Positions 37,673-54,604 of a DNA stretch of 64,000 bases are shown here, in pieces (within the stretch, counting starts at the first letter, position 1; the number at the start of each line of letters is the position of its first letter). The notes beneath the pieces were generated by a model. It was not told where the DNA came from. It did not search any database and saw nothing but the letters and a program-made list of their open reading frames with translations. The translations under genes and the position numbers were made by a program. The stretch lies in NCBI GenBank assembly GCA_963721385.1, contig CAVRJB010000008.1:42074-106073 (forward strand), given 5' to 3'. The DNA comes from an uncultured Acidobacteriota bacterium (lineage in GTDB: Bacteria > Acidobacteriota > Thermoanaerobaculia > UBA5066).

Positions 37673-39903
37673 GGGTGCGGAAGGAGACCAGCGCTTCCGC
37701 CCTCTTCCTCCTCGCTCTTCCGTTCGTCCTCTCGGCCCAGGCTCCGGCCAGGAAGTCGCTCACGCTCGAAGCGATCAGCGGCCCGGAGTCCCTCGTCCCG
37801 CGCGGCGCGACCGGAATCGCGTGGCGGGACGGCGGCCGCGTCACCTGGCTGACGACCGAGGGGCGCGGGAAGGAGACCTCGACGACGCTCTGGCAGTACG
37901 ACACGGCCAAGGGAAAGAAGACGGCGCTCCTCGTCAAACCGATGCTGCCGGCGGCGAAGGGCGTGGACGGAACGGACGAAGCGCCGAAGCCGCTGGCGCT
38001 CGCCGGCATGCAGTGGAGCCCGTCGGGGTCCGTCCTGCTCTCCTCGGGCGCTTCCGACCTCTGGATCTGGGACTTCGGCGCGAAGGCCGGGCGGGAGCTC
38101 CGCCGCCTGACGAACGACGCCGATGACGAGGAAGTCCCCGGGTTCTCTCCCGACGGGTCGCGCGTCGCCTACGTCAAGAAGAACGACCTCTGGGTTCTCG
38201 ACCTCGCGAGCGGCAAGGAAACGCGCCTCACGACGACCGGAAGCGAGACCGTCCTGAACGGGAAGCTCGACTGGGTCTACGAGGAGGAACTCGCGCACCG
38301 GCGGAGCGGCCGGTCGTTCGAGTGGGCGCCCGATTCGAAGGCCATCGCCTATCTCCGCCTCGACGAAGGCCGCGTCCCCGAATACCCGATCGTCGACTAC
38401 ACCCCGACGAACGGAAAGGTGACCCGCCAGCGCTACCCGAAGGCGGGCGACCCGAACCCCGTTCCGTCGGTCCACCTCGTCGAGATTTCGGGCGCGAAGG
38501 CGTCGGCCCGAGACGCGACGTTCGCGAACGACGACGTCCTCGTCTACCCGGAATTCTCGTGGACGGCCGACTCCTCGGCCGTCTCGTTCGTGAAGCTGAA
38601 CCGCGTCCAGACGAAGGCCGAGGTCTTACTCCTGCCGCGGGACGGCACCGCGCCGAAGCTCCTCCTTTCGGAGAGCGACCCCGCCTGGGTGAATCCCATG
38701 GAGCCGCCGCGCTTCCTCGCGGACGGCTCCGGCTTCCTCTTCGTCTCGGAGCGGACCGGCTTCCGGCACCTCTATCGCTACGCAATGGACGGGACGCTCC
38801 GGAACGCCGTCACCAAGGGCGACTGGATGATCGACGGCCCCGTGGAGGTGGACGAGAGGGCGGGCGTCGCCTTCTTCGCCTCGACGGTGAAGGACCCGCG
38901 CGAGCGGCAGGTTTGCCGCGTCAACCTCGACGGCAGCGGCTTCGCGGTCCTCGCCGCCGAGCCGGGAACGCACTCGGTCGTCCTCTCGCCGTCCGGGCGC
39001 AGCTACGTGGACACCTTCTCGAGCCTGAGCACTCCTCCTTCGCTCCGGCTCCGGTTCGCGGACGGCACGAGCGACATGGCCGCCGCGGCGCTCCACGAGG
39101 TGGCGCTTCCGTTCACCGTCGACTCGCTGGGAACCGTCGAGATGGGCTCCTTCCGCGGCGCCGACGGGACGCTCTTCTACACGTCGCTCGTGAAGCCGGC
39201 CGGCTTCGACCCGGCGAAGAAGTACCCCGCGGTCGTCTACGTCTACGGCGGCCCGCACGAGCAGGTCGTCCGCAACAGGTGGGGCAACGGGACGCTCCTC
39301 GACCGCCTTCTCGCCTCGAAGGGGATCCTCGTCTGGTCGATGGACAACCGTGGCTCGTGGGGCCGCGGCCACGCCTTCGAGACGCCGATCCTGAAGAAGC
39401 TCGGAACGGTCGAGCTCGCGGACCAGCTGTCCGGAATCGCCGAGCTGAAGAAGCTGCCGTTCGTGGACGGCGGCCGCCTCGCGATCCGGGGTTGGTCGTA
39501 CGGCGGCTTCATGACGCTGACGGCCGCGACGCACGCGGGTTCGACGTTCACGTGCGCTATCGCGGGGGCGCCCGTCGTCGCCTGGAGGCTCTACGACTCC
39601 ATCTACACCGAGCGGTACATGAAGCTCCCGAAGGAGAATGCCGAGGGGTACGCGGCGGCCTCGCCGCTCGAGACGGCGGGGACGCTCGGGACGAGGCTCC
39701 TGATCCTCCACGGCACCTCGGACGACAACGTCCACATGCAGAACACCATCCTCTTCGCCGACGAGCTGATGAAGGCGCGGAAGGACTTCGACTTCGTCCC
39801 GCTGCCGCGCCAGGCACACGGTCCCCGCGATCCCGACGCCCGCCTCTACACGGACCAGCGGATCGTCGAGTTCCTCCAGCGGAACCTCCTGAACCGGCCC
39901 TGA
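37669..39903 (+). CDS. secreted dipeptidyl-peptidase IV (S9B family)
   Basis: N-terminal DPP-IV beta-propeller region and a C-terminal prolyl oligopeptidase domain with GWSYGG (GxSxGG) and Asp/His in a conserved context. Confidence 0.85.
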   Translation: MRVRKETSASALFLLALPFVLSAQAPARKSLTLEAISGPESLVPRGATGIAWRDGGRVTWLTTEGRGKETSTTLWQYDTAKGKKTALLVKPMLPAAKGVDGTDEAPKPLALAGMQWSPSGSVLLSSGASDLWIWDFGAKAGRELRRLTNDADDEEVPGFSPDGSRVAYVKKNDLWVLDLASGKETRLTTTGSETVLNGKLDWVYEEELAHRRSGRSFEWAPDSKAIAYLRLDEGRVPEYPIVDYTPTNGKVTRQRYPKAGDPNPVPSVHLVEISGAKASARDATFANDDVLVYPEFSWTADSSAVSFVKLNRVQTKAEVLLLPRDGTAPKLLLSESDPAWVNPMEPPRFLADGSGFLFVSERTGFRHLYRYAMDGTLRNAVTKGDWMIDGPVEVDERAGVAFFASTVKDPRERQVCRVNLDGSGFAVLAAEPGTHSVVLSPSGRSYVDTFSSLSTPPSLRLRFADGTSDMAAAALHEVALPFTVDSLGTVEMGSFRGADGTLFYTSLVKPAGFDPAKKYPAVVYVYGGPHEQVVRNRWGNGTLLDRLLASKGILVWSMDNRGSWGRGHAFETPILKKLGTVELADQLSGIAELKKLPFVDGGRLAIRGWSYGGFMTLTAATHAGSTFTCAIAGAPVVAWRLYDSIYTERYMKLPKENAEGYAAASPLETAGTLGTRLLILHGTSDDNVHMQNTILFADELMKARKDFDFVPLPRQAHGPRDPDARLYTDQRIVEFLQRNLLNRP

Positions 39904-39945
39904 CGCCTCCGGCGTGGCCGCCGCCTGTCCGCGGCGGCCACGTTG
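39904..39945 (+). terminator. perfect 11-bp stem hairpin (GTGGCCGCCGC ctgtcc GCGGCGGCCAC) after the DPP-IV gene
   Basis: Sequence inspection. No U-tract follows, which is common in high-GC genomes. Confidence 0.45.
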
Positions 39946-39986
39946 CCCCGTTGACAGCGGCCGGGCGCCGCCGCAAGCTGGTCTCA

Positions 39987-41807
39987 ATGTCAGATCCGCG
40001 TCGCTCCTATCCGCTCCCCGGGGGGAGGCCCCTGAAGGTCTTCGCCATGGACCCGATGCTCGGGGACGCGGCGGGAAACCGGATCACGATCGCCCTTCGA
40101 AACGAGTCGCTCCGGCCCGGGCCGAGCGGCGAGCGGCTCGAGGTCGTCGACTACGACGGCGGGAGCCGCCGCTTCTACGAGCCGGTCGACCTCGACCACC
40201 CGGCGCTCCTGATGCAGGGGGGGCTCGACCCGGCCGAGTCCGACCCCCGCTTCCACCAGCAGATGGTCTACGCCGTGGCGTCGAGGGTGCTCGAGAACTT
40301 CGACGCCGCGCTCGGGAGGCGGTTCCGCTTCAAGGGAGGGGCGCGCCTGCGCCTCCTGCCCCACGCCTTCCGCGGCGCGAACGCCTTCTACGACCCCGAC
40401 CTCTCCGCGGTCCTGTTCGGCTACTTCCGTGCCGACGAGGAGAACCCCGGCCCGAACCTCCCGGGCCAGACGGTTTTCACCTGCCTCTCGCACGACGTCA
40501 TCGCGCATGAGGTGACGCACGCGCTCGTCCACCGCCTCCGGCCGCGTTACCTCGAAGCCTCGAACCGCGACGTCCTCGCCTTCCACGAGGGGTTCGCGGA
40601 CATCGTCGCCATCTTCCAGCACTTCTCCTTCCCCGAGATCCTGACCGGGGCGATCCAGGAGACGCACGCCCGCCTCCAGTCGGCCAACTCGCTCGTGAAG
40701 CTGGCCCAGCAGTTCGGCTACGCCACGGGGTCGGGGCAGGCGCTCCGCTCGGCGATCGACGACGAGGCCGACGATGGTGACGACGCGGCGGGAGAGAAAC
40801 GGCGCAAGCGCGAGCGGCTGAAGCGCCAGCAGTACGAGACGGTCCTCGAGCCCCACGAGCGCGGCTCCATCCTCGTCGCCGCCGTCTTCGACTCCTTCTT
40901 CGCGACGTACCAGTCGCGGATCCGGGACCTGATCCGGATCGCGACCGGCGGCTCCGGCGTCCTCCCCGAAGGGGATCTCCACCCCGACCTCGTCGGGCGG
41001 ATCGCGAAGGAAGCCTCGAAGTCGGCCCAGAACGTCCTGACGATGTCGATCCGCGCCTTCGACTATCTGCCCCCCGTGGACGTCACGTTCGGCGACTTCC
41101 TCCGCGCCCTGGTGACCGCCGACACCGAGCTCGTCCCGGCCGACGACCGAGGCCTCCGGGCCTCGATGATCGAGGCCTTCCGCGTCCGCGGCGTCTACCC
41201 GGAGAGCGTCGTCTCCCTCGCGCAGGAGTCGCTCCTCTGGGAGGACCGGAGCGGCGAGATCCCCGACCTGCCGGTGAACCTCCTCCGGCAGCAGCTCGTC
41301 CTCTCCGCGCGCGCCTTCGACCGGTACGCGCCCGGGCGCGAGAGCGACGACGACCCCGTCGGGCCTTGGGCACAGGCGCTCCGCGCCTGGGCCGCTGCGA
41401 ACGCGCGCTCCCTCGACCTCGTCCCTGGCCTTCCCGTCGAGCTGGGGGGGTTCCACACGGTCTTCCGCGTCTCGCCGGACGGACAGCTCCTCGTCGAGCT
41501 CGTGGCCCGCTTCGTCCAGACGCCGAAGGGCCCGAGGGACGTTCCGCCCCTCCGGGGAGGGACGACGATCGTCGCCTCTTCCGAGGGGAAAGTCCGGTAC
41601 GCCATCTCGAAGCCCCTGCCGTCGAGGAAGCTCCGCCCGGAGGCTCACCGCGAGGGCGAGCGCCGGACGGAGCGCCATGCGCGCCTCACTGACGAGATGG
41701 CTCTCCGCGATCCGTCGCTCGCCTGGGGGGACGCCCGCTCCGAAAAGCGCCGCCGCCTCGGTGTCAGCTTCGAGGCCCTGCACCGGGCCGTCTGGAGCAC
41801 GCGATGA
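39987..41807 (+). CDS. cytoplasmic thermolysin-fold (M4-like gluzincin) metallopeptidase domain protein with unknown N- and C-terminal regions
   Basis: HEVTHAL...(20 aa)...HEGFAD reproduces the thermolysin spacing H-E-x-x-H ... E(+24) x x x D(+28). No signal peptide. 606 aa. Confidence 0.55.
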   Translation: MSDPRRSYPLPGGRPLKVFAMDPMLGDAAGNRITIALRNESLRPGPSGERLEVVDYDGGSRRFYEPVDLDHPALLMQGGLDPAESDPRFHQQMVYAVASRVLENFDAALGRRFRFKGGARLRLLPHAFRGANAFYDPDLSAVLFGYFRADEENPGPNLPGQTVFTCLSHDVIAHEVTHALVHRLRPRYLEASNRDVLAFHEGFADIVAIFQHFSFPEILTGAIQETHARLQSANSLVKLAQQFGYATGSGQALRSAIDDEADDGDDAAGEKRRKRERLKRQQYETVLEPHERGSILVAAVFDSFFATYQSRIRDLIRIATGGSGVLPEGDLHPDLVGRIAKEASKSAQNVLTMSIRAFDYLPPVDVTFGDFLRALVTADTELVPADDRGLRASMIEAFRVRGVYPESVVSLAQESLLWEDRSGEIPDLPVNLLRQQLVLSARAFDRYAPGRESDDDPVGPWAQALRAWAAANARSLDLVPGLPVELGGFHTVFRVSPDGQLLVELVARFVQTPKGPRDVPPLRGGTTIVASSEGKVRYAISKPLPSRKLRPEAHREGERRTERHARLTDEMALRDPSLAWGDARSEKRRRLGVSFEALHRAVWSTR

Positions 41808-43021
41808 GCCCGGCAAAGAAGCCCTCCGGTGCGGTAACCGTCCGGATGTACAACGTCGGCTTCGGCGACGCGTTCCTCCTGACGTTTCCCGGCTCGCCGC
41901 CGAGAAAGGTCCTCGTCGACTGCGGCTCCCACAACGCCGGCCCGGGCCCCGAGCCAATCGGCGACGTGGCCGCCCGGATCGTCCAGGACGTCACGGGAGC
42001 CGACGGCGTCCCGAAGATCGACGTCGTCATCGCCACGCACCGCCACCGGGACCACGTCGCGGGCTTTTCGTCGCCCGTCTGGAAGGACGTGCGCGTTGGC
42101 GAGGTCTGGATGCCGTGGACCGAGGAGCCTGATGACCCCGACGCAAAGAGAATCCGCGAAGCACAGAGTTCCGGCGCGGCCAAGCTCCACGCGGCCCTCC
42201 GGCTCTCCGGCGCCCCCGACCACGTCCTCGACCTCGTCGCCAACTGCCTCACGAACGAAAAGGCGATGGCGACGCTCCACGGCGGCTTCGCCGGGAAGCC
42301 CCACCGCTTCTTCCTGCCGAAAAAGGGCGCGGAGAGAAAGCCCTTCACCCCGGCCGCACTTCCGGGCGTCACCGTCCACCTCCTCGGCCCGTCGCGCGCC
42401 CCCGACGTCATCCGCGACATGGAGCCGCCGAAGGGAAAGGGCTATCTGCGGCTCTCGGGCGAGGCCGACGGCGGCGCCGGCCTGCCGTTCCGCCGCCGGT
42501 GGGCCATGACGCCGAAGGAGTTCGACGCCACCGCCGCCTTCGCGCACCTCAGGCTTCCCGAGAAGTACCGCCGGGCCGTCGACGCCCTCGGCGAGGACGA
42601 CGACCTCGCGGTCGCCGTCGCCCTCGACGCCGCGGTCAACGGCACCAGCCTGATGCTGATGTTCGAGGTCGGGAAGGCGTTTCTCCTCTTCCCCGGAGAT
42701 GCGCAGTGGGGGACGTGGAACGCGGTCCTCTCGGACGAATCGGCCGTCCAGCTCCTGAAGAAGACCGTCTTCTGCAAGATCGGCCACCACGGCAGCCACA
42801 ACGCCACGCCGCGGGAGTTCGTCGAGAACGACCTCTCGACGTTCTCGGCCATGGTCTCCACCCGCCCGATGCCCAATTGGAAGTTCATTCCGAAGCCGGC
42901 GCTGATGGCCGCGCTTCACAAGAAGTCGAACGCCGTCGTCCGAAGCGACCAGCTCTCGTCCGTCCCCTCCGGCTTCACGAAGCACGGAAACATCTGGGTG
43001 GAGACGAGGATCCCGGTCTGA
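41804..43021 (+). CDS. MBL-fold metallo-hydrolase (ComEC/DNA-internalisation-like MBL subgroup)
   Basis: VRMYNVGFGDAFLL..VLVDCGS, HRHRDH (HxHxDH) and a distal KIGHHGSHN motif. Start overlaps the upstream stop (ATGA). Confidence 0.65.
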   Translation: MSPAKKPSGAVTVRMYNVGFGDAFLLTFPGSPPRKVLVDCGSHNAGPGPEPIGDVAARIVQDVTGADGVPKIDVVIATHRHRDHVAGFSSPVWKDVRVGEVWMPWTEEPDDPDAKRIREAQSSGAAKLHAALRLSGAPDHVLDLVANCLTNEKAMATLHGGFAGKPHRFFLPKKGAERKPFTPAALPGVTVHLLGPSRAPDVIRDMEPPKGKGYLRLSGEADGGAGLPFRRRWAMTPKEFDATAAFAHLRLPEKYRRAVDALGEDDDLAVAVALDAAVNGTSLMLMFEVGKAFLLFPGDAQWGTWNAVLSDESAVQLLKKTVFCKIGHHGSHNATPREFVENDLSTFSAMVSTRPMPNWKFIPKPALMAALHKKSNAVVRSDQLSSVPSGFTKHGNIWVETRIPV

Positions 43022-43031
43022 GAGGAGCGCC

Positions 43032-43548
43032 ATGGCCCAGTTCACCGTCAACGCCGGCCGCTTCGACCCGTACAAGAACTTCAAGTTCCGCGTAAAGTGG
43101 GATGGCAAGGTCGTCGCCGGCGTCAGCCGCGTCAGCCCGCTCCGGCGCGTCACGGAGGTCATCGAGCACCGCGAGGGAGGCGACCCGAACACGTCCCGGA
43201 AGTCGCCGGGAAGGACCCAATTCGACGCCATCACCCTCGAGCGGGGGGTCACGCACGACCCGGCCTTCGAAGAGTGGGCGAACCAGGTCTGGCGCCTCGG
43301 CGCCGGCGCGGGCGCCGAGGTCGCTCTGGCCAACTTCCGCAAGGACATCGTGCATCGAGTTCTGCAACGAGGCCGGGCAGGTGGCCCTGGCCTACAAGGT
43401 CTACCGCTGCTGGCCCTCGGAGTACCAGCCTCTTCCGGCCCTCGACGCCGACTCCGGGGCGGCCGCCTTCCAGTCGATCACCCTCCAGCACGAAGGGTGG
43501 GAGCGCGACACCTCGGTCCAGGAGCCGCAGGAACCCAAGTCGACGTGA
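43032..43548 (+). CDS. phage T4 gp19 / eCIS (Afp1/Pvc1-like) tail tube protein homologue (TIGR02241-like); apparent +1 indel near 43357
   Basis: N-terminus has FKFRVKWDG...IEHREGGDPNTSRKSPGRTQFDAITLERGVT. The C-terminus (IEFCNEAGQVALAYKVYRCWPSEYQ...ITLQHEGWER) lies in the frame of ORF 43102..43548. Deleting one base in gtgcatcgag joins them as ...FRKDIVIEFCNEAG... Confidence 0.65.
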
Positions 43549-43943
43549 GCGCCGGCGGCGCGGATCCGCCGGCGCGTCTCGACGTCCGGAAGACGCTCCG
43601 CCCGGGCGAGCGGGGAACGAGGAAGTTGCTCAAGCTCTACGGCAACGACCTCGTCTCCGTCCGCTACCGCCACGACGAGGCCGCCGGCGTCCGCCTGAAG
43701 ACGGCCGAGATCGTCGTCGCCCGGGTCAAGCTCAAGCGGTCGAGGTCGCTCCCCCCGAGCGCCCTCGTCTACGCGAAGGTCGAGCCGTGGGAGAAGCCGC
43801 TGCACGAGAAGCTCAAGAAAGCTGGCGCGCGGTGGGACCCGGGACTACGATTGTGGCGGATGCGCTACGACACGGCCCTCGCCCTGGGGCTCCGACGGCG
43901 GATCCTGACGTCCCTTCCGAAGCCCGAAAGCGGTCACCGGTAG
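43545..43943 (+). CDS. small Lys/Arg-rich hypothetical protein (candidate DNA-binding protein)
   Basis: GTG start overlaps the tail-tube stop (GTGA). Lys-rich, non-repetitive composition argues for real coding sequence. Its last codons overlap the first downstream direct repeat. Confidence 0.4.
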   Translation: MSAGGADPPARLDVRKTLRPGERGTRKLLKLYGNDLVSVRYRHDEAAGVRLKTAEIVVARVKLKRSRSLPPSALVYAKVEPWEKPLHEKLKKAGARWDPGLRLWRMRYDTALALGLRRRILTSLPKPESGHR

Positions 43944-44008
43944 GAACTTAAATGCGGTCACCCGTAGGAACATTCGCCCGAAACAGACCAAAAGCGGTCA
44001 CCGGTACC
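43930..44008 (+). repeat. three direct repeats of an imperfect palindrome GCGGTCACC(G/C)GTAGG (spacing 24 and 40 nt)
   Basis: Read directly from the sequence. Copies begin at about 43930, 43954 and 43994. Each has a CGGT(C)ACCG core with dyad symmetry. Confidence 0.6.
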
Positions 44009-44032
44009 CACCTGGGGGTGCCGTCTAATACT

Positions 44033-44039
44033 AGTTAGG
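44033..44039 (+). other. isolated GTTAGGC integron-type core site (GTTRRRY), 25 nt downstream of the direct repeats
   Basis: Sequence match to the canonical attI/attC R' core. No upstream attC-like stem is present, so it may be an attI-like or attG-like site. Confidence 0.35.
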
Positions 44040-44451
44040 CGGCGAATGGACGAACGCGGCCTCGTCGCTGGCTCGACGTCCGACACCTTGGCTCGAGATT
44101 CGAAGCTCTACTCCGGCCGACCGCGTCGAGCACTGCGCCTTATCGCGCGGTGAGCCGGTGGAGCCGTCTCCTCGACAATTCCCCGCTGACCGGCTTACTC
44201 GAGCTTGCTGAGCGCACTCGCGCTCAGCTTTCTCCACGGCATCGACGGCGGCCTAGCCCGCGTCTCACTCGCAGATCTGGAGGTGGCGTCAGCCCGCCAC
44301 AGTGTAGGCGTATCGCTCGTCAGCATCGCCTCGCAGGGCAGCATCGCGCCGAGCACTCCTTGCGGCCGTCGAGCCACGTAAGTCGCGGCACGCTACCCGA
44401 GGGCGAGCGGCTCGCGCTGCAGCGGCAGCTTGCGGCCGAGCGGGCGTGGCC

Positions 44452-44483
44452 ACCTAACAGCGCGCTGCAGCGGACTCGGAGGT
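44452..44483 (+). other. 5' half (R''-L'') of an integron attC-like site, interrupted by the IS3 element
   Basis: ACCTAAC (RYYYAAC) then GCGCTGCAGCGGACTCGG. Homologous to the 5' halves of the intact copies at 46397 and 46987. Confidence 0.6.
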
Positions 44484-44527
44484 TGCTTCGGTATCGTTGA
44501 CACTCTCAGCTAACTAGAGAGGTCGCG

Positions 44528-44884
44528 ATGGGAAAAGCAGGACCCCGGAGAGTCAGAAGCTACAGCCAGGAGTTCAAGCTGCGGGCCGTTCAGCTGAGCC
44601 GGCAGCCGGGAGTCCTGGTCCGGGACGTGGCGCTTTCACTGAGCATTCACCCCTTCATGCTGTCGCGCTGGCGCAAGCAGGCCCGGGACGGCCAGCTGCG
44701 CGGTGCCTTGCCGGCTCTGGACCTGAAAGCCGTGGGTGAGCTCCAGCGGCTGCGAGAGGTCGAGCGCGATTACAAGCGGCTGAAGATGGAGCATGAGCTC
44801 CTAAAAAGAGCGATCCGGTTCGCCCGCGAGTTACGGGGGACGTCTTCGCGTTCCTCGAGGCGAACCGGAGGTTCTTCCCGGTGA
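44528..44884 (+). CDS. IS3 family transposase OrfA (HTH domain)
   Basis: SYSQEFKLRAVQL...MLSRWRKQ and a leucine-zipper-like C-terminus. A run of A's followed by G (CTAAAAAGAG, a likely slippery site) lies near 44810. Confidence 0.8.
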   Translation: MGKAGPRRVRSYSQEFKLRAVQLSRQPGVLVRDVALSLSIHPFMLSRWRKQARDGQLRGALPALDLKAVGELQRLREVERDYKRLKMEHELLKRAIRFARELRGTSSRSSRRTGGSSR

Positions 44885-45711
44885 GCCTGATGTGCAGGAG
44901 GTTCGGCGTCACGCGGGCCGGGTTCTACGCCTGGCGACGCCGTCGTCCGAGTCGCCGGACGTGTTCTGACGCGGCGATGACCGAACGGGTTCTGGCGGTG
45001 TTCCAGGAGGCGAGGGGGCTTTACGGCAGCCCTCGAGTGACCCGGGAACTCGGGCGGCGAGGCGTTTCGGTTGGCCGACGCCGTGTCGCGCGTCTGATGC
45101 GCCTGGCACAGCTCCAGGGCCGCTCGGCCCGTCTTTACCGCCGGTCGCGCGTGGGTCAGAAGGCGTTCTATCGGCTGCATCCGAACACGGTCCACGGTCT
45201 CACGACGACCGGCCCGGACCAGCTCTGGGTGGGAGACGTCACGTACGTCCGGGTCGCCGGACGCTGGCGGTACCTGGCCGTCGTGATGGACCGGCACTCC
45301 CGCAGGGTCCTCGGATGGAGCCTGGGCCGGAATCGGGACGCTTCGCTGACCCGGCGCGCCCTCACTCACGCCGTCCGATGGCGCCGTCCGCCTGCGGGCC
45401 TGACGTTTCACAGCGACCGCGGGATCGAGTACTCGGCCGTCCACCTCGGAGACGAACTGTCCCGCCGGGGTTTCGTCCAGAGCATGAATCGCCCGCGGCA
45501 GATGAACGACAACGCCCACATGGAGTCGTTCTTCCATTCGCTGAAGACCGAGTGGCTCTTCGGGATGACGTTCCAGAAGGACTCCGACCTCCGGGCCGCT
45601 CTCCTCGACTACGTCGGCTTCTACAATCGGCGGCGCCTCCATTCGTCCCTTGGATACCTTCCCCCGGCCGTGTTCGAAGCCCAGGTCCCTAACCACACGG
45701 GTGTCAACTGA
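44881..45711 (+). CDS. IS3 family transposase OrfB (DDE integrase catalytic domain)
   Basis: LWVGDVTYV...HSDRGIEY...NAHMESFFHSLKTE gives the D, D35E motifs of rve-type integrases. Confidence 0.85.
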   Translation: MSLMCRRFGVTRAGFYAWRRRRPSRRTCSDAAMTERVLAVFQEARGLYGSPRVTRELGRRGVSVGRRRVARLMRLAQLQGRSARLYRRSRVGQKAFYRLHPNTVHGLTTTGPDQLWVGDVTYVRVAGRWRYLAVVMDRHSRRVLGWSLGRNRDASLTRRALTHAVRWRRPPAGLTFHSDRGIEYSAVHLGDELSRRGFVQSMNRPRQMNDNAHMESFFHSLKTEWLFGMTFQKDSDLRAALLDYVGFYNRRRLHSSLGYLPPAVFEAQVPNHTGVN

Positions 45712-45720
45712 ACCGAAGCA

Positions 45721-45763
45721 AGTTCCCTCGCTACGCTCGCCGCTGAGCTCGATATCGTTAGGC
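45721..45763 (+). other. 3' half (L'-R') of the IS-interrupted attC-like site, ending in canonical GTTAGGC
   Basis: CGCTCGCCGCTGAGCTCGATATCGTTAGGC is homologous to the 3' halves of the other copies. The next ORF starts 21 nt downstream. Confidence 0.6.
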
Positions 45764-45783
45764 GATTCTTAGGGGAGGACATC

Positions 45784-46347
45784 ATGCGTTCACAGGCCTT
45801 CCTTTCGAGCAATTGTTCGCGACGGACGATTACCGGGCTCGCAGTGCTTGTTCTTCTGGCTGCCACTCCGGCGCACGCTCAGGTGTCGTGCAAGCTGCTC
45901 CAGCCGGTAGAGCTTGAGTCGATCCTGAAGGAGTGGGCCGCAGGAGGGAAAACGGCAAAGTTCTCCGGCTCCACCGACAACTCAAGCGGCATAGCCTTCG
46001 ACGCCTGCAGCAGCGAAATCGTGAGACCGGGTCAAGGGAATCTGCAGATCAGGGTCGTCGTTGTCAAGAATCTCCCCATGAGCGGCGGCGACGCCATACG
46101 CACGCGAAACGCAGCTTTGGCACGCGAGGGCCAGTGGAAGGTCAAGGGCGCGCAATTTGAGGAAAAGGCAGTGGGCAAAGCGATGTGCACCCTGTATGGC
46201 AGGCCCGGAGTGGCAGCACATTCGGTGTGCGCCATCCCCAGCGCGAATGGTTATGTCGAGGTGGAGGTGATTACTCCTTTTCAGAAGGTGATCGTATCAA
46301 TGGATGCCGTAGGGACGCTGGTGCAGAAGGCGAACAGCCGCTTGTGA
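45784..46347 (+). CDS. cassette ORF: secreted hypothetical protein (signal peptide, 4 Cys), lower GC
   Basis: 187-aa ORF with an AGGGGAGG RBS, followed by an attC-like site. Confidence 0.55.
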   Translation: MRSQAFLSSNCSRRTITGLAVLVLLAATPAHAQVSCKLLQPVELESILKEWAAGGKTAKFSGSTDNSSGIAFDACSSEIVRPGQGNLQIRVVVVKNLPMSGGDAIRTRNAALAREGQWKVKGAQFEEKAVGKAMCTLYGRPGVAAHSVCAIPSANGYVEVEVITPFQKVIVSMDAVGTLVQKANSRL

Positions 46348-46396
46348 CTAACAAGGTCCATATTGACGTGAAACGGTCCCGGAACAAAAGTCGGGC

Positions 46397-46457
46397 GTCG
46401 AACAACACGCTGCAGCGGACTCGCTTGCGCTCGCCGCTGAGCGCGGTATCGTCAGGC
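46397..46457 (+). other. integron attC-like recombination site (61 bp; R'' GTCGAAC ... R' GTCAGGC)
   Basis: Inverted core sites, an internal imperfect palindrome with an extrahelical G (GCTGCAGCGG vs CCGCTGAGC), and a position immediately 3' of an ORF. Confidence 0.6.
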
Positions 46458-46526
46458 CGACAGACGCGCGTCACCGCCGATAACGCCCCGTGTGGCCCAT
46501 ATCACTCGAACCCCAGGAGGAACACC

Positions 46527-46977
46527 ATGATCGTTGAAGCACAGGTAACCATCAACGGATCCAAGGCGGCGATCTGGGCGGCAATCACCAACATCGAGAA
46601 CGCCTCGGAAACCATCAGCGGAATCGAAAACATTGAGGTCCTCGAAAAACCGGCAAACGGGCTCGTCGGACTAAGGTGGCGAGAGACCCGAATGCTATTT
46701 CGGCAAGCCAGCTACCGCGGAAAAGTGGATCACCGATGCTGCTGAGAACGAGTTCTACAAAACCAAAGCAGAAAGTGATGGATTTGTATTCTTAACCACC
46801 AAGAGTATTTCAGAGAGCAGTGGCGGCATTACGTTGGCTGAGTCTCATGATTCCAAGCCTCAAGGCATCGTTGCAAAACTAATGTCGATCCCAATGCTGT
46901 TTCTGTTCAAGGGCGTGGTGAAGAAGGCCCTCCTGCAAGACCTAAACGATATTAAGTCCGCAGTTGAACAGAAATGA
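46527..46977 (+). CDS. cassette ORF: SRPBCC (Bet v1 / polyketide-cyclase-like) protein; apparent +1 indel in a TTT run near 46700
   Basis: N-terminal part in frame 1 (MIVEAQVTINGSKAAIWAAI...RETRMLF). The remainder (GKPATAEKW...KKALLQDLNDIKSAVEQK) is in the +1 frame. GC is only about 45 %. Confidence 0.6.
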
Positions 46978-46986
46978 TCGATTGCG

Positions 46987-47046
46987 GCCTAACGACGGCA
47001 TGCAGCGGACGCGCTTCGCTCGCCGCTGAGCGCGGTATCGTCAGGC
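46987..47046 (+). other. integron attC-like recombination site (60 bp; R'' GCCTAAC ... R' GTCAGGC)
   Basis: Same architecture as 46397..46457, with about 85 % identity to it. Confidence 0.65.
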
Positions 47047-47092
47047 CGCAGAAGAAACATTCCTCTCACCACCACCGCGCATCGGAGGTCAC

Positions 47093-47479
47093 ATGAAACG
47101 AGTCACTGGTATCGGGGGCATCTTCTTCAAGGCGAAAGACGCTCCATCACTGCAGGCTTGGTACAAGCGGCACTTGGGAATCGATGTCCAGGCCTGGGGC
47201 GGAGCTGCCTTCGATTGGACCGACGCCGAGGGCAAGCCGGTTGCAGGCACAACTGCCTGGCTCATCGATCCGCAAGAAAGTAATCACTTTGCTCCGAGCT
47301 CTGCTTCCTTCATGGTCAACTACCGAGTGGAAGACCTCCACGCCTTGGTCAAGGTCTTGAAGGAAGAAGGCTGCAATGTGCTCGAGAAGATTGACGAATC
47401 CGAGTATGGGAAGTTTGCCTGGGTCATTGATCCAGAGGGAAACAAGGTCGAGCTATGGCAGCCGCCACAAGGCCAATGA
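47093..47479 (+). CDS. cassette ORF: VOC (glyoxalase/bleomycin-resistance) family protein
   Basis: 128 aa with the VOC beta-alpha-beta-beta-beta fold pattern (GIGGIFFKAKD...). Confidence 0.7.
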   Translation: MKRVTGIGGIFFKAKDAPSLQAWYKRHLGIDVQAWGGAAFDWTDAEGKPVAGTTAWLIDPQESNHFAPSSASFMVNYRVEDLHALVKVLKEEGCNVLEKIDESEYGKFAWVIDPEGNKVELWQPPQGQ

Positions 47480-47510
47480 GCAGGCTCGTTACGCACGGCC
47501 GCGAACTGCG

Positions 47511-47582
47511 GCCTGACACTTCGTTCAACCGGACGCCTTGCGGCGGGCTGCCGCAAGGCGCCGGTTAACTCGAACGTCAGGC
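47511..47582 (+). other. integron attC-like site of a different sequence class (72 bp; R'' GCCTGAC ... R' GTCAGGC; internal perfect palindrome GCCTTGCGGCgggctGCCGCAAGGC)
   Basis: Perfectly inverse core sites and a central hairpin. It sits between two + strand ORFs. Confidence 0.6.
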
Positions 47583-47616
47583 AGCACACCGATCCGCAGC
47601 GCCTGAGGTACCACTC

Positions 47617-48090
47617 GTGACAAATATCCGCACGTCGAGTTCAGTCCTTCTTGCGGCAGCGATGAGCTCGTTCGCAATCGCTCTCGTTCACCTCGGCATC
47701 ATGTTCATGGGCGCTCCGGGCTACCGTTACTTCGGTGCGCCGGGACTCGCCGTTCAAGTGGAGCGTGGGTCCTCGGTGCCCGCGTTTCTCTGTATTGGCG
47801 TCGCCGCGCTCCTTGGCCTTTGGGGTCTCTACGCCCTCGCAGGGGCAGGCCGGATCCGACCGCTGCCTCTGCTTCGCGCAGGCATCCTTCTCATCGGTAC
47901 TATCTACCTCCTCCGGGGGTTGCTCGGGCTCCCGCAACTCGTCTGGGTACTCGCCGGGCGCAACGTGGCACCCCTCCGATACCTCCTCTTCTCTCTGGTG
48001 TCGGGCGTCACTGGCGTGCTCTATCTCGCCGGCCTCTTTGGACTTCGGCGTGCCACACGCGCCACCTTCGAGGAGCACCGTGCTGCCTGA
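47617..48090 (+). CDS. cassette ORF: small integral membrane protein (4 TM), unknown function
   Basis: GTG start 35 nt after the R' core. The TGA stop is embedded in the next GCCTGAC core. Confidence 0.5.
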   Translation: MTNIRTSSSVLLAAAMSSFAIALVHLGIMFMGAPGYRYFGAPGLAVQVERGSSVPAFLCIGVAALLGLWGLYALAGAGRIRPLPLLRAGILLIGTIYLLRGLLGLPQLVWVLAGRNVAPLRYLLFSLVSGVTGVLYLAGLFGLRRATRATFEEHRAA

Positions 48091-48174
48091 CCCCTCGCTC
48101 CAGCGGACGCGCTAGCGATCGCCACCGGCTCGTGGCGGGAATTTGCTCACGACGTGCTGGCGCGCAAGTGACGG
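48085..48174 (+). other. degenerate attC-like site (R'' GCCTGAC overlapping the stop codon; 5' arm homologous to the 46397/46987 copies; R' decayed to GTGACGG)
   Basis: GCTCCAGCGGACGCGCTAGCGATCGCC aligns to GCTGCAGCGGACTCGCTTGCGCTCGCC. Confidence 0.45.
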
Positions 48175-48202
48175 TGGCGCCTTCGGGGCGCTCCTCCTGA
48201 CC

Positions 48203-48685
48203 TCACTTCGCCGCGGGTGGCGCGGGAGGGAGCGAGGTCCGGGAGTAGAGGCCGACCGGGTGACCGGCCGGATCCACGACGAGGCCGATGGCCCCGGTGC
48301 CGTCCGTCAGATTGAAGGGAAATCCGGGAATGACCGTTCCCCCCAGCTCTTTCGCCTTCCTGCAGCTGGCCAGGATGTCGATCACCTGGACGTAGACGAC
48401 GCCGTTGAAGGGGCTGATCTTCCCCTCCGCGACCCGCAGCGTCCCGATGGCGGTGCCGCTCGCGACGATCTCCGCCGCCAGGTCGGTGCCCGGCACCGGG
48501 TTGAATTTCCAGTCGAAGAGCTTGCCGTAGAATTCCTTCGCCTGTGCGAGGTTGGTCGTGGAGATGTCGAACCAGGCGATGCGCCCCGGTCCGACATCGG
48601 CGGGGGGAGCCTTCTGCGTCGCCGCCGGAAGCGGTCCGGTCAAGAGGGTCATGACCATGGTGATCGCCGAGATCGCGTTTCGCAT
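48203..48685 (-). CDS. VOC (glyoxalase-like) family protein with signal peptide, in inverted orientation relative to neighbouring cassette ORFs
   Basis: 160 aa with a VOC fold pattern. Confidence 0.65.
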   Translation of the reverse strand: MRNAISAITMVMTLLTGPLPAATQKAPPADVGPGRIAWFDISTTNLAQAKEFYGKLFDWKFNPVPGTDLAAEIVASGTAIGTLRVAEGKISPFNGVVYVQVIDILASCRKAKELGGTVIPGFPFNLTDGTGAIGLVVDPAGHPVGLYSRTSLPPAPPAAK

Positions 48686-48699
48686 CGCCGCCCTCCTGG

Positions 48700-48779
48700 C
48701 TCACATTCGCGGGGGAGGGCCCGAATGCTAGCACCGGGCAGAAAGCCCCTCTGCGCCGGGCGCGAGGTCGTCGGGCGTC
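48700..48779 (+). other. possible decayed attC-like 3' arm (GCGCGAGGTCGTCGGGCG, compared with consensus GCGCGGTATCGTCAGGCCG)
   Basis: Partial similarity only. Confidence 0.3.
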
Positions 48780-48852
48780 ACAAGTCATCCCTCGGCGCTC
48801 CCGTGGTCGGTCGAATCCTCGACCCCGGCCAAACGTCGAACTGAAAGGCGAG

Positions 48853-49305
48853 GTGATCATGCCCACAGGTACCGTCCGGCTTCACCGCGTGCTCCGTGCC
48901 AAGCCCGACCGCGTCTATCGGGCCTTCCTGGACGCCGACGCCATGGCCAAATGGCTGCCACCCTACGGTTTCACCTGCAAGGTCCACCACCTGGATGCCC
49001 GGGTGGGCGGCACCTACAGGATGTCGTTCACGAACTTCGGCACGGGTCACGGCCACTCCTTCGGCGGCGAGTACAAGGAGCTGGTGCCGAACGAGAAGCT
49101 CCGCTACACGGACAAGTTCGACGACCCGAACCTGCCCGGGGAGATGCTGACGACGGTGACCCTGAAGCCCGTGTCGTGCGGCACCGAGCTGAACGTCGTG
49201 CAGGAGGGTCTGCCGGAGTTCATTCCCGTCGAAATGTGCTATCTCGGCTGGCAGGAATCGCTCGAGCAGCTCGCGAAGCTCGTCGAGCCCGAGATTCCGG
49301 GGTAA
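48853..49305 (+). CDS. SRPBCC superfamily protein (AHSA1 / activator-of-Hsp90-ATPase-like)
   Basis: 150 aa with a conserved N-terminal RVYRAFLDADAMAKW motif. Confidence 0.65.
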   Translation: MIMPTGTVRLHRVLRAKPDRVYRAFLDADAMAKWLPPYGFTCKVHHLDARVGGTYRMSFTNFGTGHGHSFGGEYKELVPNEKLRYTDKFDDPNLPGEMLTTVTLKPVSCGTELNVVQEGLPEFIPVEMCYLGWQESLEQLAKLVEPEIPG

Positions 49306-49367
49306 CGGGGTTCCGCCGGATTCCTTGCTCCGGCGGACGACGCGCGGGAGACCGAAGGAGGCAGGGG

Positions 49368-49862
49368 ATGGATCCCGAGACGGTTCAGGAACTGCAGGCG
49401 TACAACACGTGGGCGAACGGGCGGATCCTGGACGCGGTGGCGCGCCTCGATTCAGACGGGTTCAAACGCGCCCTCGGCGGGAGCTTTCCGTCTGTCCAGG
49501 CCACGCTGACGCACATGGTCTGGGCGGAGTGGCTCTGGCTCGAGCGGTGGCAGGACCGCTCGCCGAAGGAACTGTTCGCGGCGGAGGAGTTTCCGTCCGT
49601 CCCGGACCTGAGGGCCCGGTGGAGCCCGGTCCAGGCCGCGCAGAAGACCTTCGTCGCGGCGCTGACGCCGGAGAGGCTTCAGCGGGTCGGCCGCTACACG
49701 AACCGGAAGGGGGAGACGTGGGAGTACGCCCTCTGGCGGCAGATCCACCACCTCTTCAACCACTCGACCTACCACCGCGGCCAGGTGACCAACATGCTCC
49801 GGCTTCTCGGCGCCCAGCCGGCGGTGACGGACTTCCTGGACTACTGGGACGAAGGCCGGTAG
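49368..49862 (+). CDS. DinB/YfiT-like (DinB_2) metal-dependent four-helix-bundle protein
   Basis: NTWANGRIL...HMVWAEWLW...HHLFNHSTYHRGQ pattern. Confidence 0.7.
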   Translation: MDPETVQELQAYNTWANGRILDAVARLDSDGFKRALGGSFPSVQATLTHMVWAEWLWLERWQDRSPKELFAAEEFPSVPDLRARWSPVQAAQKTFVAALTPERLQRVGRYTNRKGETWEYALWRQIHHLFNHSTYHRGQVTNMLRLLGAQPAVTDFLDYWDEGR

Positions 49863-49961
49863 GCGTGCGACTCCGGACGACCGTGGACAGATCAACATGA
49901 TCAGGAAGAGGATGAAGCCGTAGCTGACGGCCTCCGGTCCGCCGGGGGGAGGGCTTGATCC

Positions 49962-50885
49962 GTGCACATCCTGCAGGCCATCGGGAAGACGTCTCTCGTA
50001 AGGCTTCGCAAGGTCGTCCCGCCTGGCTGCGCGGAGATCCACGTGAAGCTGGAGTGGGAGAACCCCACGGGCAGCATGAAGGACCGGATGGCGCTGGCCG
50101 TGATCTCGCGGGCCGAGGAGGACGGGCGCCTCCAGCCGGGAGACACCGTCGTCGAGTACACGGGGGGGAGCACGGGCGCGTCGCTGGCGCTCGTCTGCGC
50201 CGCCAAGGGCTACCCGATCCGGCTCGTCACGTCCGACGCGTTCAGCCGGGAGAAACGGGATCACATGGCGGCCCTCGGTGCAGAGCTGACGATCGTCCCG
50301 AGCGAGGGCGGGCTCAGCACCAGAAAACTGTTCCAGGACATGATCGAGACCGCCCGCAGGATGAGCCTGGAGCCTCACACCTACTGGATCGACCAGCTCA
50401 ACAACCGGGACAGCATCGCGGGCTACACCTCGCTGGGCGAGGAGATCTGGAGCCAGACGACCGGAGAGGTCGACGCCTTCGTTCAATCCGCCGGTACGGC
50501 GGCTTCTTCGCGCGGGGTCGCCACGGTGCTGAAGCGGTACAAACCGGGCGTCGCGATCGTCGTCGTCGAACCCGCGGAATCCTCGGTGCTGCGGGGAGGC
50601 CCGGCCGGTGCTCACGGGATCGAAGGAATCGGGATCGGCAGCACTCCCCCGCTCTGGGAGCCGACGCTCGTGGACGAGATCCTGTCCGTCAGCACGGACG
50701 ACGCGGAAAAGATGGCGAGGCGGCTCGCGCGGGAGGAGGCTCTCTTCGCGGGGACCTCGTCCGGCGCGAACGTCGTCGCCGCGATCCGGGTCGCCGAGCG
50801 GCTCGGTCCGGGCGCACGGGTGGTCACGTTGATGGTCGACTCCGGCCTGAAGTACCTGAGCACCGACGTCTACAGGCGAAAGTAG
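49962..50885 (+). CDS. PLP-dependent cysteine synthase family protein (CysK/CysM-like)
   Basis: PTGSMKDR lysine motif and a GSTGASLA-like glycine loop. GTG start. Confidence 0.75.
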   Translation: MHILQAIGKTSLVRLRKVVPPGCAEIHVKLEWENPTGSMKDRMALAVISRAEEDGRLQPGDTVVEYTGGSTGASLALVCAAKGYPIRLVTSDAFSREKRDHMAALGAELTIVPSEGGLSTRKLFQDMIETARRMSLEPHTYWIDQLNNRDSIAGYTSLGEEIWSQTTGEVDAFVQSAGTAASSRGVATVLKRYKPGVAIVVVEPAESSVLRGGPAGAHGIEGIGIGSTPPLWEPTLVDEILSVSTDDAEKMARRLAREEALFAGTSSGANVVAAIRVAERLGPGARVVTLMVDSGLKYLSTDVYRRK

Positions 50886-50913
50886 CCCGCGATATCGTTC
50901 CCGAAGATCCCCG

Positions 50914-51733
50914 ATGATCATCGGCCTCGCGTCGCCGCGCATCGCCTCGACCCTCGACGAGGGCCTGGAGAAGATCGAGCGGCTCCTGTCCGAAGCTTCG
51001 GCCCGCGGAGCGGAGATCGTCTGCTTCCCGGAAGCCTATCTCCCGGGCCTCCGGGGACAGGACTTCGAGGTCTTCCCCTTTGACGAGATGCAGCAGGAAC
51101 GGGCGTTTCGGACCGTGGCGCAGTGGGCGCGAACGTACGCGGTCGCCACGATCCTCGGGATGGAGAGGCTCAGCCCGGCGGGCAGGCAGATCGTCGCCTT
51201 CGTCATCGACGCCCAGGGCGAGCTTCAGGGATATCAGACCAAGAACCAGCTCGACCCGACCGAAGACAGGTTCTATGTGCCCGGAGATACCCGGCGACTC
51301 TTCGAGATCAACGGGGTCAAGTTCGGAGTGGCGATTTGCCATGAAGGCTGGCGCTATCCCGAGACGGTGCGATGGGCGGCGGCGCGGGGCGCCAAGATCG
51401 TCTTTCATCCCCAGCACACGGGGACCGAGCGCGACGGCGTCCGGCTGACGGAGTGGGGCGCGGCCGGCGAATCCCTACTACGAGAAGGCGATGACGATGC
51501 GCAGCCTCGAGAACACGATCTACTTCGCCAGCGTCAATTACGCGTTGCGCTTCCAGGAATCGGCGACGAGCCTCATCGACCCGACAGGCAAGTGCCAGGC
51601 GTATCTCCCCTATGGGCAGGAAGGCCTGCTGGTGCAGGCCATCGACGTCGAGGAGGCCACCGGATTGCTGGCAATCCGATATGCCCCCGAGCGCCATCGG
51701 GAATTCCTCTCCGACGAAAGGAGGGGCTCATGA
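50914..51733 (+). CDS. carbon-nitrogen hydrolase (nitrilase superfamily); apparent +1 indel near 51475
   Basis: E-K-C triad context (CFPEAY..., ...GVAICHEGWRYPE). The C-terminal part (NPYYEKAMTMRSLENTIYFASVN...) continues in the frame of ORF 51491..51733. Confidence 0.65.
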
Positions 51734-51776
51734 CGGTTTCCTCACGCCAGATGGCGCTGAAGTCATCGTCGACCGT

Positions 51777-52139
51777 ATGAGGCCTCGCGAGCTCGTCCGG
51801 GCCTGGGTCGAGGCCTTCAACCGGGCCGATGCCGACGCGCTCGCGGCCTTCTACGCCGAGGACGCCGTCAACCACCAGGTCGCCGAGGCCCCGGTGAAGG
51901 GCCGCGAAGCCATCCGCGAGATGTTCGCCTCCGGGTTCGCGTCGGCGACCATGGTCTGCCTCGTGGAAAACCTCTTCGAGGACGGCGAGTGGGCGATCCT
52001 CGAGTGGCGCGATCCGCTCGGCCTCCGGGGCTGCGGCTTCTTCCACGTGGTGAACGACAGGATCGTCTTCCAGCGAGGCTACTGGGACAAGCTCTCCTTC
52101 CTGAGATCCCGGGGCCTGCCGATGCCGGAAGATCCGTGA
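51777..52139 (+). CDS. NTF2-like / SnoaL-like protein
   Basis: 120 aa with a LVRAWVEAFNRADADALAAFYAEDAV pattern. Confidence 0.6.
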   Translation: MRPRELVRAWVEAFNRADADALAAFYAEDAVNHQVAEAPVKGREAIREMFASGFASATMVCLVENLFEDGEWAILEWRDPLGLRGCGFFHVVNDRIVFQRGYWDKLSFLRSRGLPMPEDP

Positions 52140-52158
52140 GCCCCGCAGGAGGTCCGCC

Positions 52159-52518
52159 ATGGAACCGGTCAACCTGAAGGACAAGCTCGCTCTCTTCTCG
52201 ACCCGTTGGGACCCCAAGATCGTCGGAGAGCTGAACGGCCAGCACGTGAAGCTCGTGAAGTTCCTCGGCCCGTTCATCTGGCACCGGCACGAGAACGAGG
52301 ACGAGCTGTTTCTCGTCCTCCGGGGCTCGTTCGAGATGGAGTTCCGGGATCGCACCGTTCCCGTTCGGGAAGGGGAGTTCCTGATCGTCCCCCGCGGCGT
52401 CGAGCATCGCCCCGTCGCCGAATCCGAGGTCCACGTCCTCCTCTTCGAGCCGGTCTCCACGCTCAATACGGGCGACGTTCGGGGACCGCTCACCGTGAGC
52501 CAACCGGAATGCATCTGA
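52159..52518 (+). CDS. cupin domain protein
   Basis: HRHENEDELFLVLRG...VPRGVEHRP are the two cupin motifs. Confidence 0.7.
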   Translation: MEPVNLKDKLALFSTRWDPKIVGELNGQHVKLVKFLGPFIWHRHENEDELFLVLRGSFEMEFRDRTVPVREGEFLIVPRGVEHRPVAESEVHVLLFEPVSTLNTGDVRGPLTVSQPECI

Positions 52519-52539
52519 GTCTCTCCGTCCCGGGACCCG

Positions 52540-52590
52540 TTTGCGCCGGCCGCTGTTCGCGGTATCGTCACGGGGCACCAAAACGCACCG
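52540..52590 (+). other. remnant 3' arm of an attC-like site (GCCGCTGTTCGCGGTATCGTCACGG) upstream of the next ORF
   Basis: Homologous to the GCCGCTGAGCGCGGTATCGTCAGGC arms at 46430 and 47020. Confidence 0.4.
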
Positions 52591-52614
52591 CGGGGAGACA
52601 GGAGGGACCGAAGC

Positions 52615-53031: not shown

Positions 53032-53035
53032 AGGC

Positions 53036-53398: not shown

Positions 53399-53588
53399 CC
53401 CCCCGACGCAACCCGGAACTCGCCCCGTCCATGGCGGACGGGAACGGGCCTGTCCCATGCCGCGTCTGCATTTCGCCGTCGTCTTCGTCGCCCTCGCGGG
53501 CCTCGTCTTCGGCGCCTGCGTCGCGTCCGGGTCCCCGGCCCTTCCCCGCTGACGTCCAGGCCGATCTCGGTCAGAATCGGAAGCCGTC

Positions 53589-54511: not shown

Positions 54512-54554
54512 CGGTCTTCGACGACGTCGAGTGGAACGAACCTCGTGCAGCCCG

Positions 54555-54597
54555 GCTCGCCCCGCTTCGCCGTGCGCGATATCGTCGGAGCCGGGGG
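54555..54597 (+). other. remnant attC-like 3' arm (CTCGCCCCGCTTCGCCGTGCGCGATATCGTCGGAG) upstream of ridA
   Basis: Homology to the other copies. R' decayed to GTCGGAG. Confidence 0.35.
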
Positions 54598-54604
54598 AAA
54601 CACC

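Follow-up and report, generated by a model that had tools for sequence, protein, structure and literature searches.

A four-gene block in a 64-kb stretch of acidobacterial DNA read as a mosaic of a metallopeptidase-hydrolase pair, a tail-tube gene and an integron platform end

Four co-directional open reading frames (ORFs) at 39987-43943 (+) of a 64-kb stretch of DNA, hereafter the window (~70% GC; homologues annotated as Thermoanaerobaculia, Acidobacteriota), form very probably a mosaic of three independent modules. Module A is genes 1 and 2 (39987-43021), a zinc metallopeptidase and a hydrolase of the metallo-beta-lactamase (MBL) fold. Module B is a tail-tube gene, gene 3 (43032-43548). Module C is gene 4 with three direct repeats and the box GTTAGGC (43545-44040); it is the putative platform end of a sedentary integron, with its own integrase missing. 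The modules are packed head to tail and are probably co-transcribed. The full explanation, in which each part of the mosaic also takes the role proposed below, is held with moderate confidence.

The four genes are not one unit, because L007, L003 and L006 lack both the tube and gene 4, and L022 lacks the tube. The coupled pair of genes 1 and 2 is followed by unrelated genes in L007 (94% identity in gene 1), L003/L004 and L006 (80-82%) and L001/L002 (61%). The pair was surveyed in one genome per species; the best 80 loci were returned, 71 of them informative (enough sequence downstream). Gene 1 is immediately followed by a gene 2 homologue in 71/71 informative loci; a tube or gene 4 homologue beside the pair is found in 0/80. 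The first-pass annotation of this DNA had described the four genes as one operon, with co-occurrence in other genomes as a check. Co-occurrence holds for genes 1 and 2 and fails for the tube and gene 4, and a single four-gene system is not supported. By tblastn with the genes of L003, collinearity with that relative extends to 43018 and returns only at 54605 (RidA, OsmC, aldehyde dehydrogenase); the segment between, 43019-54600, is therefore taken as a variable island.

Genes 1 and 2 overlap by ATGA (41804-41807), genes 3 and 4 by GTGA (43545-43548). Both overlaps had been annotated correctly; the spacer between the gene 2 stop and the gene 3 start is 10 nt (43022-43031), not 11 nt. The tight co-directional arrangement is as first described, gene 3 being complete only after repair of one base, and GC is host-like, as claimed (0.68-0.72). 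No promoter-like site was found in a scan of 39700-44600, which is uninformative in an acidobacterial genome of 70% GC. Three terminator-like sites were found there, all on the minus strand, against 2.5 expected by chance, which is likewise uninformative at this GC. Tight spacing and stop-start overlaps did not mark a functional unit here.

The metallopeptidase-hydrolase pair

Gene 1 encodes a zinc metallopeptidase. The zinc motif HEVTH occupies residues 174-178 (H174ExxH178); Glu201, the third zinc ligand, lies at +27 and Asp205 at +31 from the first His (His174). All of 50 homologues keep H174, E175, H178, E201 and D205, and the ExxxD downstream of HExxH is present. The distance from HExxH to Glu is 3 residues longer than in thermolysin. 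HEVTH had been reported with exact thermolysin spacing, at offsets of +24 and +28; the motif stands, the offsets do not, and the spacing is therefore not exact. The predicted structure has a thermolysin-type two-lobe catalytic fold (thermolysin/fungalysin-like), as a structural check named earlier required for a peptidase; a beta domain is added at the N-terminus and an alpha/beta domain at the C-terminus. No match was obtained to Pfam, NCBIfam peptidase models (E<0.1), PADLOC or PHROG, M4 and M36 included, and the family profile has no match among PDB sequences. Signal peptide, hydrophobic or transmembrane-like segment and FTP/PepSY propeptide are absent from gene 1, whose N-terminus is polar. 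The lack of a signal peptide had been noted before; gene 2 is likewise without signal peptide or transmembrane-like segment. The gene 1 protein is cytoplasmic.

Homologues of gene 1 number > 7,500, at 55-60% identity. The gene is duplicated, in tandem or as a fusion, in P0013, P0027, L112, L115, L122 and L176. In the fused duplicates P0013 and P0027 only the second copy retains HExxH; the motif of the first is degenerate (HQVTH, HLVSH), its catalytic Glu lost, an arrangement predicted to be pseudo-protease plus protease. Relatives of 957-1046 aa were considered as gene 1-gene 2 fusions and rejected; they carry the peptidase domain twice in tandem, the first HExxH being degenerate.

Gene 2 carries HRHRDH at 79-84, GDA at 298-300 and HHGSHN at 328-333. 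D39, H79xH81xD83H84, D299 and H328H329 are invariant in 51 family sequences. Weak matches in NCBIfam and PADLOC are to ComEC, 6A-MBL, Avs1a, LmuA-MBL and RTasMBL, the MBL associated with defence-associated reverse transcriptases (DRT). Across the family, PADLOC models match 51/51 sequences for LmuA-MBL (best E 9.5e-24), 49/51 for RTasMBL and 46/51 for Avs1a. On the NCBIfam Avs1a model gene 2 scores 32 bits (cut-off 420); it appears to be related to the Avs1a, LmuA-MBL and DRT-MBL families without being an equivalog of them. Aligned to solved ComEC MBL structures, the family profile falls into two blocks (E 1e-12 to 1e-14). Relative to ComEC it has ~125 extra positions between the HxHxDH and NNTSL motifs, and this insertion is the least conserved part of the family. 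Gene 2 is thus predicted, as its motif and ComEC-family matches indicate, to be a ComEC-type MBL-fold hydrolase and a nuclease; the first-pass annotation had placed it in the same subgroup.

The surveyed pair occurs in at least 10 phyla, with loci in Acidobacteriota, Gemmatimonadota, Chloroflexota, Actinomycetota, Proteobacteria, Myxococcota, Planctomycetota, Bacteroidota, Armatimonadota and Clostridia. A gene for a patatin-like phospholipase directly follows it in 15-16/80 loci (e.g. L114:6696-7880). CHAT-domain proteins (2/80) and a Tle1-like phospholipase (1/80) are encoded at flanking positions. On this distribution the pair is an obligate, self-contained two-gene unit, widespread across phyla and apparently horizontally mobile. 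A PF13699 eCIS_core gene (DUF4157-type HExxH) was observed at L001:18862-19803, ~7 kb downstream of the pair in a distant Thermoanaerobaculia genome; no other gene of a contractile injection system (CIS) is present in the L001 locus listing.

MBL proteins of Hachiman, AVAST and Canu are gated pro-nucleases, in which insertions absent from the competence nuclease block the active site; they turn into DNases once cut by a co-evolving partner protease (PMC12799240, Science 2025). Lamassu and DRT variants have the same gene pair, and the partner proteases reported there are only trypsin-like, caspase/CHAT or subtilase (PMC12799240). Gene 1 is proposed as the proteolytic activator of gene 2, since a thermolysin-fold partner without a Pfam family would escape a survey of that type. 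The gene 2 nuclease would be synthesised as an inactive proenzyme. On an unspecified trigger the gene 1 peptidase would cut the insertion of gene 2 and free the DNase. A sensor or autoinhibitory role would fall to the additional N- and C-terminal domains of gene 1, and the patatin phospholipase would be an additional effector in some relatives. The patatin, CHAT and Tle1-like genes beside the pair and the duplicated peptidases lend the proposal some colour.

Activation of the gene 2 nuclease by the gene 1 protease, proposed by analogy, is tentative, its chances a little short of even. A defence function of the pair is possible and somewhat more doubtful. The same reserve applies to the wider proposal that a metallopeptidase family of > 7,500 clusters without a Pfam entry, present in at least 10 phyla, would be a dedicated activator of a ComEC-type MBL pro-nuclease, forming a fourth, stand-alone protease class and a minimal two-gene system with the sensor within the protease. 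A literature search for a metalloprotease-MBL system found none. Of the earlier suggestion of a conflict or defence module with the tube as a member, the part that concerns genes 1 and 2 is retained; the tube is left out.

Several observations weigh against the predicted cleavage, DNase activity and immune role. Matches of gene 2 to Avs1a, LmuA and 6A-MBL are at 32-53 bits, far under the curated cut-offs. The insertion holds conserved islands (EVWMPWTE, LGPS, PF) and is thus more than a disordered gate. The protease gene precedes the nuclease gene, the reverse of the order in the pairs of PMC12799240. Around the pair, adjacent genes are mainly of the housekeeping kind and PADLOC matches are few, so that the defence-island test gives no support, and in the lineage of the window the pair is syntenic and apparently vertically inherited, which suits a housekeeping role too.

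Genes 1 and 2 as a housekeeping or stress-response pair (e.g. nucleic-acid turnover plus protein processing), with no part in immunity or abortive infection, are a possible reading of lower probability. Core genes lie on both sides of the pair in the window's lineage, the housekeeping neighbourhood recurs through the 80 genomes, and conservation is high among Acidobacteriota (55-60%). Opposed to this are the patchy occurrence of the pair over at least 10 phyla at 40-58% identity, suggesting horizontal transfer; the defence-system MBLs as nearest relatives of gene 2 in hidden Markov model searches; the recurrent third genes (patatin, CHAT, Tle1-like); and the duplicated gene 1 with degenerate first HExxH, a pseudo-enzyme pattern typical of conflict systems. 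If protease-gated activation is true, proteolytic gating of MBL nucleases reaches beyond serine and cysteine proteases to a zinc metalloprotease; a compact two-gene module without separate sensor exists in soil and sediment phyla scarcely covered by defence catalogues; and a large unannotated protein family gains a testable function.

The tail-tube gene and its frame break

As sequenced, gene 3 is broken, with its N-terminal 107 codons in the frame of 43032 and its C-terminal 64 codons in the frame of 43102. Removal of one inserted base (Table 1) gives a product 90-94% identical to intact relatives, with an exact match at the junction; the repaired junction reads FRKDIVIEFCNEAGQ, identical in L009, L020 and L021. 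The uninterrupted 303-aa ORF at 43032-43943 is an artefact of the frameshift. The window holds at least 4 such one-base insertions: two in an M16 peptidase gene (~36890, ~37012), one in the tube (43353) and one in a nitrilase gene (~51455). All four shift the frame by +1; two adjoin GATC and one is in CCWGG context. This suggests systematic long-read consensus errors. The tube break is probably a consensus error of the assembly and not biology, because the M16 peptidase and nitrilase genes carry like insertions. A one-base assembly error was thus hidden within a seemingly clean gene. Fragmented genes are likewise seen in the relatives L010, L014 and L015 (contig_NNNN names).

The repaired product matches PF06841 over its full length (E 1.2e-41, 142 bits, cut-off 28) and TIGR02241 (135 bits, cut-off 62); it is below the CIS1 and CIS5 equivalog cut-offs. 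Its assignment as a tube of T4 gp19/Afp1-Pvc1 type is upheld by these matches. The subfamily is 70-80% identical across phyla. Gene 3 is 73% identical to the tube of a complete extracellular contractile injection system (eCIS) locus of Bradyrhizobium, which contains sheath, tube, Pvc16_N, AAA, VgrG-like and gp25 genes, the tube directly after the sheath gene. In the window, tblastn with 14 Bradyrhizobium eCIS proteins returns the tube alone; no sheath, baseplate, spike, ATPase or terminator gene is found in the 64 kb, and a PHROG scan of 31 flanking ORFs gives no structural match. The tube had already been described as isolated from other injection-system and phage structural genes, and these searches agree. 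It is the only CIS gene found in L010, L015 and L014 also.

A tube after the MBL gene is confined to genomes closely related to the window (L009, L010, L015, L020, L021, L045). In L022 the MBL stop is followed by a 9-nt spacer (GGAGCGCTC) and then by gene 4, without a tube. The ratio of nonsynonymous to synonymous substitution rates (dN/dS) among tube copies at the locus is 0.10-0.25 at dS 0.2-0.44; the tube is therefore maintained and not decaying. The window against L015 gives a higher value, 0.44, owing to a mosaic patch within the gene. This patch (43341-43412, tube residues ~104-127) reads DIVIEFCNEAGQVALAYKVYRCW in the window, L009, L020 and L021 and DVTLELFNEAGQVVLAYKIHRAW in L010 and L015, which are otherwise closer to the window; it has the look of a short tract of recombination. 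The tube ORF is flanked by two copies of a 7-bp direct repeat, GAGCGCC (43025-43031 and 43547-43553). The repeat hints that the tube was gained or lost through microhomology, and could be chance in DNA of 70% GC. A reading of the tube as an integron cassette was rejected, because the gene precedes both gene 4 and the crossover core and has no attC after it. A second orphan tube, at L014:10001-10516 (76% identity), lies between genes for a GH127 glycosidase and an LCM-type methyltransferase, with no CIS gene within 10 kb on either side.

The tube is not part of the gene 1-gene 2 module. It is derived from an eCIS and appears to have been acquired, within a single shallow clade of Thermoanaerobaculia, at the position between the MBL stop and gene 4. 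Service to a CIS encoded elsewhere in the genome is the favoured role, proposed with some doubt. Against a full separation of the modules, the tight spacing of the tube to genes 2 and 4 is kept in at least 6 assemblies; co-expression is likely, and some functional link is possible.

Decay of the tube to a pseudogene, with a real frameshift at 43353 in the remnant of a destroyed eCIS or prophage, is improbable. The frame is indeed broken as sequenced, and partner CIS genes are missing nearby; yet five relatives (L009, L010, L015, L020, L021) have intact ORFs of 169-171 aa, the dN/dS is that of a maintained gene, at least 3 other one-base insertions in conserved genes of the window point to consensus errors, and the tube lies tight against the MBL stop on one side and the start of gene 4 on the other, with no flanking CIS fragments. 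The truncated-remnant reading of the first-pass annotation is weakened accordingly by the low dN/dS and the intact relatives.

That the four genes form one system, with a tube-like protein serving the peptidase and the MBL hydrolase as sensor, scaffold or decoy, is very improbable and largely refuted by distribution. The coupling by ATGA, 10 nt and GTGA is kept in the window, L009, L010, L015, L020 and L021, and the tube at this position is under purifying selection. Against this, tube and gene 4 accompany 0/80 pair loci of other genomes, the close relatives L007, L003, L006 and L022 are without a tube, gene 4 goes with intI and attI, and the same tube subfamily is an orphan in the unrelated context of L014. 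Least probable of all is an orphan tube with an effector cargo island, in which genes 1 and 2 would be toxins loaded or delivered by a CIS encoded elsewhere: the tube resembles those of complete eCIS loci (73%), the window has no CIS of its own, and metallopeptidase and nuclease are common toxin activities, but 71/71 pair loci, including contexts dominated by housekeeping neighbours, are without a neighbouring CIS gene, no immunity-like small gene goes with the pair, and the pair predates the tube at the locus; this earlier suggestion is without support.

Gene 4, the attI-like site and the cassette array

The gene 4 family has ~2,400 representatives (2,441 at E<=1e-3, 50% clustering). It belongs to no Pfam family and has only a sub-threshold match to DUF5710. 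Its context was surveyed in 84 metagenome loci (L016-L099), and intI adjoins the gene 4 homologue in 40/84: immediately upstream and co-directional in 24, upstream and divergent in 11, downstream in 5. The tube is upstream in 3 loci; in 22, gene 4 and the attI-like site have housekeeping genes upstream, with no intI on the fetched contig; 19 contigs are too short to tell. Three sampled integrases beside gene 4 homologues score 440-467 bits on TIGR02249 (cut-off 265).

As first described, the 3' end of gene 4 runs into three direct repeats (DR1-DR3, 43930-44008). They resemble the core site and are conserved in L010, L020 and L022. Related loci have 2-4 lineage-specific direct repeats downstream of the gene 4 stop and then the core GCCGTCTAaTAcTaGTTAGGC. 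Direct repeats follow gene 4 homologues in 26/71 loci against 5/71 shuffles, and the conserved core follows in 31/71. The nucleotide alignment of the window with L010 ends at 44040, and L082 and L085 diverge directly after GTTA of the core. The region downstream of gene 4 thus appears to have the architecture of an attI site, the repeats being candidate accessory arms. The segment 43915-44045 was considered as an attC and rejected; its single-strand fold has no significant hairpin (z +0.25), for which reason it suits an attI-type rather than an attC-type site.

Gene 4 may represent an undescribed integron accessory protein encoded between intI and attI; binding or arrangement of the lineage-specific attI repeats could be its role. 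A literature search for an accessory gene in this position found none. Two points weigh against this reading of module C: gene 4 has no fold assignment, and the likeness of the repeats to the core site makes IntI, rather than the gene 4 protein, their possible binding partner. Membership of gene 4 in one four-gene system was rejected, gene 4 and its repeats belonging to the integron platform. Many environmental integrons may carry an extra conserved platform gene, and the gene 4-attI architecture could bear on attI recognition and on the persistence of arrays without an adjacent integrase.

The block adjoins a cassette array and an insertion sequence (IS) element, as had been stated; these are an integron-type array and an IS3-family element (Table 1). 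No intI was found by tblastn in the 64-kb window. The attC repeats are R'' GCCTAAC and R' GTTAGGC or GTCAGGC. The site at 46983-47048 has a bottom-strand hairpin of z -2.6; the other sites are weaker. Cassette products, by Pfam, are glyoxalase, AHSA1, DinB, PALP, nitrilase, SnoaL, cupin and thioesterase. The segment from the core to the first attC (44041-44447) has no convincing ORF and is replaced in L010 by another segment of ~1.4 kb carrying a 253-aa gene, an apparent first-cassette turnover between close relatives. The IS3 element interrupts the first attC. L010 shares this insertion (93.6% nucleotide identity), which is for that reason older than the split of window and L010. The array resembles a cluster of attC sites lacking integron-integrases (CALIN), because intI is absent from the window; yet it keeps the attI-like site and gene 4. 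Transcription read-through from genes 1 and 2 may drive the first cassettes.

Table 1. Coordinates of the block and of the adjoining array in the window
Feature	Position	Strand	Remarks
Gene 1	39987-41807	+	606 aa
Gene 2	41804-43021	+	405 aa
Gene 3 (tube)	43032-43548	+	171 aa after one-base repair
One-base insertion, GTG[C]ATC	43352/43353	+	removal restores 171-aa tube
Gene 4	43545-43943	+	132 aa, basic, GTG start
DR1	43930-43944	+	0 mismatches to consensus GCGGTCACCGGTAGG; encodes last codons of gene 4 (SGHR) and stop
DR2	43954-43968	+	1 mismatch
DR3	43994-44008	+	2 mismatches
attI-like core GCCGTCTAATACTAGTTAGGC	44020-44040	+	ends in GTTRRRY crossover box (GTTAGGC)
Integron-type cassette array	44041-54600	+	no integrase
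attC sites	44448-44480 with 45734-45765 (halves of first attC); 46393-46459; 46983-47048		repeat families D1, D2
IS3-family element	44478-45726	+	26-nt terminal inverted repeats; HTH_Tnp_1, rve (Pfam)
IS3 orfA	44528-44884
IS3 orfB	44881-45711
Partial attC repeats	~48081-48113; ~52544-52575

Comparison with known systems

Thermolysin (M4) and fungalysin (M36), of clan MA(E), are ~15% identical to gene 1. Unlike M4 and M36 peptidases, the gene 1 protein is cytoplasmic, has no propeptide, carries extra domains and is obligately paired with an MBL gene. The Bradyrhizobium eCIS has a similar 10-nt spacer before the tube ATG. Unlike eCIS tubes, gene 3 has an MBL gene before it and a putative integron accessory gene after it. 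Type VI secretion has orphan Hcp-effector islands, in which a lone inner-tube gene lies away from the main apparatus, beside putative enzymes. The lone tube gene next to putative enzymes is the likeness to the present block. The differences are that those islands belong to another secretion machine and that the enzymes here are an independent, more widespread pair which does not travel with the tube.

Site attI1 consists of a simple site plus the IntI-binding repeats DR1 and DR2 (PMC3146285); it has two repeats, the window site three. With integron platforms and CALIN (PMC4889954, PMC9024848) the window shares a GTTRRRY core after direct repeats and attC-bounded promoterless cassettes in one orientation, and homology between relatives likewise breaks at the core. 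Unlike a complete integron, the array of the window is without integrase. Unlike the platforms described in the papers searched, related loci carry a conserved gene of the gene 4 family between intI and attI.

The pairs of PMC12799240 comprise HamM with protease-HamA, Avs1a with Avs1b, the Lamassu and DRT variants, and Canu CanA/CanC. Unlike these, genes 1 and 2 have no fused sensor (HamA, STAND, LmuA) and do not lie in recognisable defence islands. As in these pairs, a ComEC-type MBL with an extra insertion adjoins a protease gene and is strictly co-inherited with it, and the pair moves between genomes as a modular unit. The partner here is a stand-alone zinc metallopeptidase of the thermolysin fold.

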